DNA of 32,000 nt from Promethearchaeota archaeon. GTDB lineage: Archaea; Asgardarchaeota; Lokiarchaeia; Sigyniarchaeales; SOKP01. The stretch is taken from NCBI GenBank assembly GCA_030606485.1, contig JAUWGH010000001.1, positions 510,001 to 542,000 on the forward strand. Direction: 5' to 3'. How positions within the stretch are numbered: the first letter of the stretch is position 1; each line of letters opens with the position of its first letter. This document shows, in pieces, positions 18,001 through 21,000 of this stretch. The position numbers are program-made.

Positions 18001-21000
18001 ATTCAAAATCGATAGGAGAATCTATATTAATTGATCTTTCAGGTGGTAAAACTAATCCTCGAGAATCCTTTCCTTCTAATGAATTTTGTTCCATAATTGT
18101 TTGTCTTTTTATAACATAAATTACTCCGCTTCGTAAATAAATAGGTGACAATTCTTGTCTCCTTTTATATTTATATTCATCTCCCCATAATGAAATCATT
18201 TTATCCCCTTCAAGCCAATACATCCAAGCAGGATGTCCATTTTCTACCTTTTTTAAAGTTATAACTGAATCTGCTCCTGTCTCTTGAAGAATTCTAATAG
18301 CCCTGTCAATATCTTTACCAAGTTTAAATGGTGTAGTCGGTTGGAGTAATGCAATTACATCAATTAGACCAATTTTAGATTCGAGAAAATTCACAGCATG
18401 TTGGAGTACGGGAACCATGGGAGTTGTATCTTTGGATAACTCCACTGGTCTCTTAATAGTTTTCATTCCATACTCTTTTGCTAATAGTATTATTTCTTCA
18501 TCCTCTGAACTAAGATAACTATCTGTTAGGAGTTCTGAATCGTTAATAGCATCAATTGTATAGTAAATTAAAGGTTTTCCTCTTAGTTGTTTTATATTTT
18601 TTTTAGGAATGCCTTTAGATCCTCCTCTCGCTGGAATTATTCCTATGATGTTTGAAACCATAAGTTTAAAAAGATAAGAAAAATTATAAAGTTTCCATAA
18701 ATTCGAATATATAATTTAAAACAAAATCGAAAGTTATGTTTAAAGGTATTTCCTGAAATATGAAGATATTAATCACCGAAACAGATTATTTCAATGAAGA
18801 TATACAGGAGATGCTACACCAAATAGGGGAAGTTAAAGTAATTGACACTAACATGGAAAGTTTACTCGAATCTATTGAATGTATTGATATTTTATTGATT
18901 GGTCTTGAATTCACTATAGATAGAAAAATAATCGAAAAAGCAAAGAATCTTAAAGTTATTGGAACTCCGACAACGGGGTTAGATCATATTGATATTGAGG
19001 CTGCAAATGAAAAAAATATTGAAATCATAAGTCTCAAAGGTGATTTTGACTTCACAGACAAGATTCACGCTTCATTTGAACATACAATAGCTCTTATGCT
19101 TGCGATTATGAGAAAAATACCATTTGCTTTTGAGTCCGTTAAAAATTATTCTTGGGAACGGAAAAAATATGTAGGTCATGAACTTAAAAACAAGGTATTA
19201 GGTATTTTAGGTTATGGTAGGATTGGTAAAAAAGTAGCAAAAATTTGTAATCAATTCCAAATGAAAGTGATTGCTAATGATATTGACTTTGAAAAAATTA
19301 AAAATGATGGATTTGAGGCAGTTTCAAAAGAAGATCTTTTTAGAAAATCTAATATAATTATTATTTGCGTGCCATTAAAAGAAAGTACAATAAATCTTGT
19401 AAATAAGAAAGAAATTCAACTAATGAAAGAGGGAAGTTGGATAATTAATACATCAAGGGGCAGAATTATTAATGAGGATGCATTATTAGAAGCCCTAAAG
19501 ACGGAAAAATTAACCGGTGCAGCTGTTGATGTTTTAAGCACTGAAAACACATCCTCACATCCTCATTCGAATAAATTGATAGAATATTCAAGAACCCATG
19601 ATAATATTATTATCACACCTCATATTGCAGGTTCTACTTTTGAATCTATGAGAATGACAGGGCATTATATTGCTGAAAAAATTTTAAATGCTCTTAAGAA
19701 ATAATAAAAAAGGTGTTAAAATAATGGTAAAAGTAATTGCAGAATTTTGTCAAAATCATTTGGGCAAATGGGATGTTTTAAAAGAAATGATTTGGAAAGC
19801 TGCTGAAGTAGGAGCAGATTATGCAAAAGTACAATCAATGCTAGCGGATGAATTAACCTTCAGAGATAGATTTGAAGAAGGTAAAATTATAAACAATAAG
19901 GTAAAAGTGATAAAAAGACCCTTTAAACCCGAATATGATCGCTTAAAACCAATGGATTTAACTAAAGAGTTATTTCAAAAATTTGTCGATGAATGTAAAA
20001 GTGCTGGCATAGAACCCCTAACAACAATTTTCACGAGACAAAGAATACCTTTCCTTGCTACATTAGGAATGAAAAGTGTTAAAGTAGCTAGTTATGATTG
20101 TGGGTCTTATCCTCTTATAAGAGAACTTAAAGAAAAATTTAATTACCTTTATATCTCTACAGGAGCAACTTTTGATGAGGAAATTGAGAAAGCCGCTCAG
20201 ATCTTAAATGATCATGAATTTTCTTTCCTACAATGTGTTACTATTTATCCAACTCCATTAGATGTTTTAAATCTAAATAGAATGAATTTTCTAAGGAAAT
20301 TTACATCTAAAGTTGGTTTCTCAGATCACTCTCTTATAGCTAGAGATGGCATAAATGCGTCTATTATAGCTTTAGCTTTGGGTGTTGATGTGATAGAAAG
20401 ACATTTTACAGTACTTAAAACAGAAGAATCGCGAGATGGACCTGTGTCTATTAATCCTCAACAATTAAAAGAATTAGTTGAGTTTTCTAACCAAAAACCT
20501 GAAGAAATTATGGATTATGTAAAACAGAACATCCCTAATTGGGAAATTACTCAAGGAAAAGAGAAGAGAGAATTAACTCATGGAGAATTGCTTAATAGGG
20601 ATTATTATCGAGGAAGGTTTGCTAGTAAAGTTAATGGAGAAATTATCTACAACTGGGAAGATAAAAAAGTCTTTTAAGATTTTTTTAATAAATTACAATG
20701 AAATATATATTTACTAATTTTGGAAGTGGAAACGGACCATATATTAGAACTATAGATATGGGAATAGAATTAATTAATTTACTTAAAGATAAATTTAATG
20801 AAGACTTTTCAATTATAGTCCCATTGGTATATGGAAATCGGCAAAAAAGAATTATAAATGAAGAATTCGGGGAAATCTTAGAAAAACAACCAGATTTAAT
20901 CTTATTCGATGAATATCTTGGTCAGCAATTTAAAAGAATCTTATTTGATGGAAGGAATTATGACATAATAATGCAAGAATTAATTTCTTCTTATGATAAA

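Follow-up and report, generated by a model that had tools for sequence, protein, structure and literature searches.

A seven-gene cassette at positions 16147 to 23605 of the window (the whole 32,000-nucleotide stretch analysed here, from contig JAUWGH010000001.1 of a Promethearchaeota archaeon) is read here as a version of a mobile, widely conserved pathway for a cytidine monophosphate (CMP)-activated ulosonic acid other than neuraminic (Neu), legionaminic (Leg) or pseudaminic (Pse) acid. The full scheme, to which we give slightly less than even odds, would run from a nucleoside diphosphate (NDP)-hexose through the NDP-uronate and the free uronate, to which phosphoenolpyruvate (PEP) is added, to a 3-deoxy-nonulosaric acid and its CMP-sugar. 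Gene order and natural fusions point to a uronic acid as the building block, which would give the sugar two acid groups. The cassette includes the two intact open reading frames (ORFs) that ORF calling and Pfam delineated at 18760-20677, as the first-pass annotation had described them: a D-2-hydroxyacid dehydrogenase (2HADH) resembling phosphoglycerate dehydrogenase (PGDH) and a NeuB-family synthase. Across loci, the core of the cassette consisted of a CBS-fused NDP-sugar 6-dehydrogenase, the SAF-truncated NeuB and a CMP-transferase, together with one nucleotide-handling module, and the 2HADH was a frequent optional member.

Gene context was assessed in 80 metagenome loci found with family-specific patterns and in others obtained from look-ups. 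ORFs were called and clustered by BLAST, clusters were named by Pfam and NCBIfam, and the counts given here refer to the 34 nonredundant loci flanked by 2.5 kb or more on each side. A CTP_transf_3 cytidylyltransferase was present in 33 of these loci, and the divergent CMP-transferase and the synthase thus form a separate conserved ulosonate module, as had been proposed. The CBS-fused 6-dehydrogenase (approximately 575 amino acids [aa]) was present in 31 loci. Four nucleotide-handling modules were found, exactly one per locus in 34 of 34 and never two: a protein of the glycosyltransferase-B (GT-B) fold without assigned family (unk345/unk391; 15 loci, and the type of the window), a ManC-like nucleotidyltransferase (11 loci, 10 of them also with a HAD phosphatase), an AP_endonuc_2 TIM barrel with the phosphodiesterase CbiR as best match (7 loci), and a Nudix-like protein (1 locus; 5 of 81 loci overall). 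HAD proteins, which resemble small-molecule phosphatases, occurred in 13 of the 34 loci, 10 of these being ManC loci, and were absent from the window's cassette. No dehydratase, aminotransferase, acetyltransferase or NeuC-type gene was found in the cassette by Pfam and locus comparison.

The 2HADH was encoded in 14 of the 34 loci, and cassette-linked orthologues, 36 to 44% identical, were found in 24 loci. The pairing of this enzyme with the synthase, to which the first-pass annotation had drawn attention, is therefore real but optional. In thaumarchaea, a LarA domain was fused to the CMP-transferase (L094:10951-12951 and also L022, L061, L062 and L074). Every one of these fusions was accompanied by the AP_endonuc_2 barrel and none by the 2HADH, and all complete barrel-type loci had either the LarA fusion or the 2HADH. 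The LarA domain is complete, and its best match was the nickel-dependent malate racemase model (250 bits versus a cut-off of 500); malate racemases act on a dicarboxylic 2-hydroxy acid.

Natural fusions joined several of these proteins. The SAF-less NeuB was fused to the CBS-dehydrogenase in P0393 and to a 2HADH, the same pair as the window's two genes, in P0392. In P0364 an unk391-like GT-B protein was fused to the CBS-dehydrogenase (hhalign, 99.7%), and in L064 and L071 the dehydrogenase carried a C-terminal Nudix-like domain (hhalign, 99.8%) that has a Nudix-box-like REL.EE motif and is homologous to free proteins of 270 to 289 aa. No fusion of NeuB to the barrel turned up in a search of long proteins, a search that is weak evidence of absence. 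Among 151 Asgard genomes, synthase and CBS-dehydrogenase were both present only in this genome and not elsewhere in the genus. Among 301 genomes of candidate phyla radiation (CPR) bacteria, the synthase was present in two, both of which also had the CBS-fused dehydrogenase (truncated by a contig end in one and with an internal TAG in the other); two further CPR genomes had CBS-less relatives of the dehydrogenase only. Because of this co-distribution, the cassette is a patchy, transferable unit that includes the CBS-dehydrogenase. The suggestion that the synthase uses an aldose of the uronic acid type, supplied by a nearby dehydrogenase, thus gained support, all of it from context: the dehydrogenase's presence in 31 of 34 loci, its fusions to NeuB, GT-B and Nudix-like proteins, and its co-occurrence with the synthase across genomes.

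All relatives of the synthase start at M13 (MVKVIAEF), and GGTG lies approximately 10 nucleotides upstream of that ATG; the true coding sequence is therefore probably 19724-20677 (317 aa), which does not overlap the dehydrogenase gene. All motifs quoted in the first-pass annotation were located in the protein (EFCQNH, aa 19 to 24; AKVQ, 46 to 49; SDH, 212 to 214; ERH, 237 to 239; DGPV, 250 to 253; and RDYYRGRF, 304 to 311). The synthase was aligned to the window's own canonical NeuB, with residues numbered as in Neisseria meningitidis NeuB (E134, H215, H236, D247 and R314). In this alignment the catalytic Glu, Lys and Gln, both metal-binding His residues and the Asp of GPDH were all kept (E19, K47, Q49, H214, H239 and D250), so that the variant motifs, although present, are mostly cosmetic. 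The equivalent of E134 was Asp (D137, in KVASYD).

The SAF domain (PF08666) had no Pfam match in the synthase. The protein is nevertheless not simply cut at RDYYRGRF, as had been assumed, since the first SAF strand (NRDYYRGRFASKVNG; YRGRFASKVNG) and the last (IYNWED) are kept, both nearly invariant in the clade. Approximately 40 residues between these strands are deleted, including KRPG with the equivalent of R314, and the SAF arginine is indeed lost; R314 has been reported to be essential in bacterial NeuB (PMC8208679). Compared with canonical NeuB, the synthase has an insertion of approximately 15 residues after strand 2, rich in Arg and Lys (R.RFEEG...IKRPY..EYDRLKP), and a linker approximately 10 residues longer. 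Ten Arg or Lys residues (R59, R61, K76, R77, R85, R117, R119, R304, R308 and R310) are invariant in the clade and have no counterpart in canonical NeuBs. In eleven members from different phyla (mean column identity, 71%), the insertion and stub features were nearly invariant, which argues that the stub is functional and not a product of decay. The AlphaFold2 (AF2) model of the synthase (predicted local distance difference test [pLDDT] score, 86) matched NeuB structures at Z scores of 29 to 31, the best being the SAF-less Leptospira protein 6NCS.

The synthase scored far below the cut-offs of both equivalog models, reaching 163.8 bits against NeuB/LegI (TIGR03569; cut-off, 399.65) and 140.1 bits against PseI (TIGR03586; cut-off, 340.25). 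Together with three other clade members the ranges were 150 to 165 and 119 to 140 bits, respectively, all below the cut-offs, whereas a SAF-bearing paralogue of this genome passed the NeuB equivalog at 419 bits. An exhaustive HMMER search returned approximately 98 cluster representatives at an E value of 1e-30, with canonical NeuBs next at approximately 110 bits. In a tree of 117 sequences, anchored by NCBIfam-qualified paralogues and not including BT1714, NANS, the Prymnesium parvum Kdn (deaminoneuraminic acid)-9-phosphate synthase, the Serratia marcescens KL1 NeuB or Campylobacter jejuni LegI, the synthase fell inside a 62-row clade (SH-aLRT, 100), and SAF-bearing NeuBs, including the genome's own, were on the other side. 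By these scores and this tree, the synthase lies outside the characterised Neu, Leg and Pse clades. The clade extends over archaea, CPR bacteria, Chloroflexi and other groups. More than 3,000 database relatives of the clade included no characterised member and were publicly labelled "legionaminate synthase" or "general stress protein"; relatives are also called "N,N'-diacetyllegionaminate synthase" in public sources. A plasmid collection contained no clade member, all matches being below 35% identity.

The designation "second NeuB" proved to be an understatement, as five NeuB-family genes lie within approximately 60 kb of this genome (contig positions approximately 510 to 568 kb; window 422-1465 and L012 to L014). 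Three of the five are intact, ordinary and SAF bearing, and one has an internal TAG. Such a set of ulosonate synthases is unusually rich for a single archaeon.

The CBS-dehydrogenase exceeded the cut-off of TIGR03026 (343 versus 189.8 bits), and its closest solved structures were CalS8, Cap5O and UDP-N-acetylmannosamine dehydrogenase. The catalytic Cys motif GGYCLKKDP was kept in 41 homologues; because of this conservation, the predicted product is an acid and not an aldehyde. The idea of a Cys-less dehydrogenase that halts at the 6-aldehyde, itself a NeuB substrate, was rejected on the same ground. The 2HADH contained both family domains and showed SRG, VDVLSTEN and TPHIAGS, which we take to be the Arg/Glu/His set of the family; its closest solved structure was the short PGDH of Pyrococcus horikoshii (1wwk). 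That it is a housekeeping SerA was rejected, as it scored below the PGDH equivalog cut-off (TIGR01327; 236.7 versus 454 bits), two other paralogues are present elsewhere in the genome, and it travels with the cassette in unrelated phyla. The cytidylyltransferase, a single copy in the genome, scored 137 bits against the PseF model, below the cut-off of 205.7.

The GT-B protein of the window, unk391, had no Pfam match. Its AF2 model (pLDDT, 91) was closest to the folds of GT1 UDP-glycosyltransferases, and its family profile matched GT1/GT28 entries of the Protein Data Bank at an E value of 5e-5. It is homologous to unk345 (hhalign, 95%). Family members matched MJ1255, MurG and PseG models, the PseG model in 3 of 22 members (best E value, 8e-5), the window's protein not among them. 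In the N-terminal G-x-G-H-x-x-R motif of PseG-type hydrolases, the His is presumably catalytic; it was present in the unk345 consensus and replaced by Pro in the window's protein. A role of the GT-B protein as the CMP-sugar transferase was judged less likely, since TagB/F-like (PF04464) and KpsS/C-like (PF05159) candidates co-occur with it and the ManC, Nudix-like and barrel modules exclude it.

To our knowledge, in every characterised bacterial nonulosonate route an NDP-sugar is modified, released by a GT-B-fold hydrolase (NeuC, LegG or PseG), condensed with PEP and activated with CTP. A route through an NDP-uronate was inferred for the cassette because the 6-dehydrogenase is its sole conserved NDP-sugar-modifying enzyme. 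The CBS-dehydrogenase would oxidise an NDP-hexose or NDP-N-acetylhexosamine to the NDP-uronate, the CBS pair probably serving feedback control of this committed step, and the GT-B protein would then free the uronate. Elsewhere, release would be carried out by the Nudix-like protein, by the CbiR-like phosphodiesterase barrel or by ManC working in reverse together with the HAD phosphatase. Condensation of this uronate and PEP by the SAF-less NeuB would yield a 3-deoxy-2-ulosaric acid of nine carbons, which is dicarboxylic; here the Arg/Lys-rich β2 insertion and the RDYYRGRF stub may replace the lost SAF arginine, gripping the anionic tail or extra carboxylate of the substrate. The cytidylyltransferase would convert this acid to the CMP-sugar. 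The 2HADH may oxidise or help to epimerise the C8-hydroxyl/C9-carboxylate end, the only α-hydroxy-acid function in the scheme, and in thaumarchaea the LarA domain fused to the CMP-transferase may act in its place. Enzymes of both types are specific for 2-hydroxy acids. We consider it possible, if short of probable, that the product is a CMP-activated nine-carbon 3-deoxy-2-ulosaric acid with its second carboxylate at C9, made from a released NDP-hexuronate and PEP, reconfigured at C8 in some lineages by 2HADH or the nickel-pincer enzyme LarA, and that it represents a new class of surface sugar across archaea and many bacterial phyla.

Several points weigh against this scheme. A nine-carbon ulosaric acid is not known from nature, the only ulosaric acid in the literature searched being Dha (3-deoxy-lyxo-heptulosaric acid) of plant rhamnogalacturonan II (RG-II). 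An Arg-rich pocket suits a sugar 6-phosphate as well as a uronate, and Asp at position 134 is the archaeal and eukaryotic state, tied to phosphorylated substrates (PMC8208679). The ManC-type loci have no obvious hydrolase, and ManC and HAD may just run forward, supplying GDP-mannose. The window's GT-B protein, with neither the motif His nor a PseG match, could be a glycosyltransferase. In S. marcescens, a NeuB carrying a COG1082 domain (the superfamily of the barrel) and NeuA are needed for plain Kdn (PMC9000132). Finally, module type largely tracks the NeuB tree (approximately 9 changes among 60 labelled loci), and the mutual exclusivity of the modules therefore rests on few independent replacements.

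Some of these points also favour a Kdn-type synthase, which we consider unlikely but to be taken seriously. PEP would then be condensed with mannose or mannose-6-phosphate to give CMP-Kdn or a close analogue, the CBS-dehydrogenase would make a separate NDP-uronic acid for the same glycan, and the GT-B protein would be a glycosyltransferase. Loss of the N-acetyl-binding arginine fits a substrate without an N-acetyl group, and Asp at position 134 is as found in users of 6-phosphates. The loci often encode ManC, GDP-mannose dehydratase and HAD phosphatases. Kdn in S. marcescens KL1/KL2 is made with NeuA and a NeuB fused to a COG1082 barrel, and in 7 of 34 loci a barrel of the same superfamily adjoins the clade synthase. 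A Kdn-type synthase does not account, however, for the restriction of the CBS-fused dehydrogenase to synthase-bearing genomes in both phylum samples, for the fusions of this dehydrogenase with NeuB, GT-B and a Nudix-like hydrolase, or for the way in which the GT-B, Nudix-like, barrel and ManC modules stand in for one another; moreover, just 13 of 34 loci have a HAD protein.

The order of the steps might also be reversed, which appears quite improbable to us: an ordinary ulosonate would be made and CMP activated, after which the CBS-dehydrogenase would turn the CH2OH end of the CMP-sugar into a carboxylate by oxidation. Sugars bound to nucleotides are the substrates of this dehydrogenase family, the CBS pair is similar to the one in KpsF/GutQ, which belong to the CMP-Kdo (3-deoxy-manno-octulosonic acid) pathway, and the NeuB-dehydrogenase fusion P0393 is compatible with such an order, whose end product would again have the α-hydroxy-acid end needed by 2HADH and LarA. 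That the dehydrogenase is also found fused with a Nudix-like hydrolase and with a PseG/MurG-like GT-B protein, however, suggests that the next fate of its product is hydrolysis and not transfer. Its closest solved relatives act on UDP- or TDP-hexoses at the pyranose C6, and we know of no CMP-sugar dehydrogenase.

The first-pass annotation had proposed that the 2HADH could either reduce the 2-keto acid made by the synthase, in which case a 3-deoxy-aldonic acid metabolite would result, or supply an acyl donor, which might be a glyceroyl or lactyl group for decoration of a nonulosonate. We found no support for either role and regard both as very unlikely. The two genes are adjacent and occur as a natural NeuB-2HADH fusion, the 2HADH family holds glyoxylate/hydroxypyruvate reductases and glycerate dehydrogenases, and an acyl-carrier cassette is also present in the window. 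Reduction at C2, however, would remove the anomeric centre needed by the CMP-transferase present in 33 of 34 loci and so block CMP activation; absence of the 2HADH from 20 of 34 loci means that it is not a core step, and no acyltransferase is conserved in the cassette. That the protein is a conventional synthase of Neu5Ac, legionaminic acid or pseudaminic acid which has merely lost SAF is hardly credible, for all its NeuB fold, full set of catalytic residues and relatives publicly named as diacetyllegionaminate synthases, given its scores far below both equivalog cut-offs, its separate clade, a cassette without dehydratase, aminotransferase, acetyltransferase or NeuC-type gene, the canonical SAF-bearing synthases with their own pathways already present in the genome, and deletion of the R314 reported to be essential in bacterial NeuB (PMC8208679).

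Table 1. Genes of the proposed ulosonate cassette in the window
Product	Coordinates	Strand	Match or context
Class I S-adenosylmethionine (SAM) methyltransferase, probable cassette tailoring enzyme	16147..17004	+	Pfam Methyltransf_11/25/31
unk305, 305-aa protein, no assigned family	17019..17936	-	Adjoins CMP-transferase in L006, L008, L016 and L089
CTP_transf_3 cytidylyltransferase (NeuA/PseF-like), predicted CMP-activating enzyme	17960..18661	-	PF02348, E 1e-20
D-isomer 2-hydroxyacid dehydrogenase, short PGDH-like, 314 aa, optional tailoring enzyme	18760..19704	+	PF00389, E 1e-15; PF02826, E 9e-53
SAF-truncated NeuB-family PEP:aldose condensing synthase, 329-aa ORF	19688..20677	+	PF03102, E 2e-50
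GT-B-fold protein unk391, predicted NDP-sugar hydrolase (PseG/NeuC-like) or possibly glycosyltransferase	20698..21873	+	
CBS-pair-fused nucleotide-sugar 6-dehydrogenase, predicted first committed step	21875..23605	-	CBS and three UDPG_MGDP_dh domains

The window is AT rich (approximately 28% GC), and the closest relatives bear NCBI names of Promethearchaeota (Asgard) metagenome-assembled genomes. A methyltransferase was present at the matching position in the close relatives L008 and L016, 14 of 34 loci had a methyltransferase, and unk305 gave no Pfam or NCBIfam match even at an E value of 1 (Table 1). An asparagine synthase (AsnB)-type glutamine amidotransferase recurred in seven loci, including L064:4531-6282, and could amidate a carboxylate or form an amidino group. 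A B12-binding radical SAM enzyme, which may C-methylate or otherwise tailor the sugar, was encoded in the vicinity of the cassette at five loci, among them the window (28325-29752, plus strand), L006:11107-12531 and L064:8263-9786. Transferase candidates for the CMP-sugar near the cassette were of the KpsS/KpsC type (PF05159) or TagB/F-like (PF04464, BFO_1060-like), at window positions 9167-10861 (plus strand) and L093:11651-12958.

Two of the cassette genes had broken copies in the window. A second CBS-dehydrogenase (29802-31197, minus strand), 70 to 81% identical to the intact one over residues 1 to 465, is interrupted by several internal stops and, close to residue 326, by a frameshift; its C-terminal quarter is missing. 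In a region covering 10937-11218 (minus strand) and 11468-12696 (plus strand), a 103-aa remnant of a 2-Hacid_dh C-terminal domain, 40% identical to residues 213 to 309 of the intact 2HADH, adjoins two ISL3-type transposase fragments and looks like debris of a past rearrangement of the glycan island. Right after the cassette, a HEPN RiboL-PSP protein (25236-25946, minus strand), flanked by ORFs without a family match (23972-25219 and 25960-26493), may be a small defence or toxin-antitoxin insertion. A 440-aa ORF without a family match (26733-28055, minus strand) coincides in position with the window's sole kilobase of high GC content (0.40 versus approximately 0.28).

Nonulosonic acids shape the recognition of microbial surfaces, and a handful of routes to them are known (Neu, Kdn, Leg, Pse and relatives). 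No description of the cassette was found in the literature searched (LarA with NeuB, nonulosaric acids and teichulosonic acid genes), and the present analysis contributes counts for its architecture, the replacement of modules, the natural fusions, the joint distribution of its genes and a specific hypothesis for the product. With the context analysis, an unspecified sialic-like sugar gives way to a concrete scheme open to inexpensive tests. If the scheme is true, a dicarboxylic ulosaric acid joins the repertoire, and the 2-hydroxy-acid enzymes in glycan operons, including the LarA fusion, are explained. The pathway would also be the first biosynthetic precedent for that class of sugars, given that the activated form of Dha in plants has yet to be identified (PMC3355719). 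If the product is Kdn instead, the annotation of thousands of genes would still be corrected.

Among known systems, the NeuB, LegI and PseI synthases (N. meningitidis NeuB, 1XUU, 1XUZ and 2WQP; C. jejuni PseI, 8H2C) share with the window's synthase the TIM barrel (Z scores, 27 to 29), the metal-binding His and the Glu, Lys, Gln and Asp residues; they also share the CTP_transf_3 partner, and the GT-B operon partner can be likened to PseG or NeuC preceding PseI or NeuB. Identity is 26 to 28%, however, and the window's synthase differs in that just two strands of its SAF domain are left, without R314, and in having an insertion of approximately 15 aa and a linker longer by approximately 10 aa. 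At the level of the route, the cassette has the CBS-fused 6-dehydrogenase in place of amino-sugar tailoring genes. The window's GT-B protein (20698-21873) resembles PseG and NeuC/LegG in that its gene lies immediately next to that of the synthase, in its fold of two Rossmann domains and in the matches of its family to MurG and PseG models. The protein itself has no family assignment, no PseG match of its own and no motif His, however, and its role as a hydrolase is a predicted one.

The best structural match was the "N-acetylneuraminic acid synthetase" of Leptospira borgpetersenii (6NCS), a SAF-less protein of 285 to 290 aa (Z score, 30.6; root mean square deviation, 2.2 over 247 residues; 28% identity). 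6NCS covers residues 3 to 276 of the model only and thus is without the RDYYRGRF...YNWED stub; the likeness is structural and does not imply membership of the same clade. A survey from 2021 described whole branches of SAF-less NeuB, all from environmental organisms and frequently with E134D, and noted that the loss may lower efficiency (PMC8208679). That paper gives no function, gene context or substrate for these groups, nor does it describe the conserved stub, the insertion or the cassette. Finally, the Kdn-9-phosphate/NANS routes (Bacteroides thetaiotaomicron BT1714 with phosphatase BT1713, P. parvum and human NANS) and S. marcescens KL1 share with the cassette a NeuB-family synthase, which in the cassette, too, would act on a sugar that lacks the N-acetyl group or has an anionic tail. 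They also share a HAD phosphatase partner at some loci, the Asp in place of E134 and a COG1082-type barrel partner. They have no counterpart of the near-universal CBS-dehydrogenase and of the nucleotide-hydrolase-like module that characterise the cassette, in which a HAD protein accompanies 13 of 34 loci.

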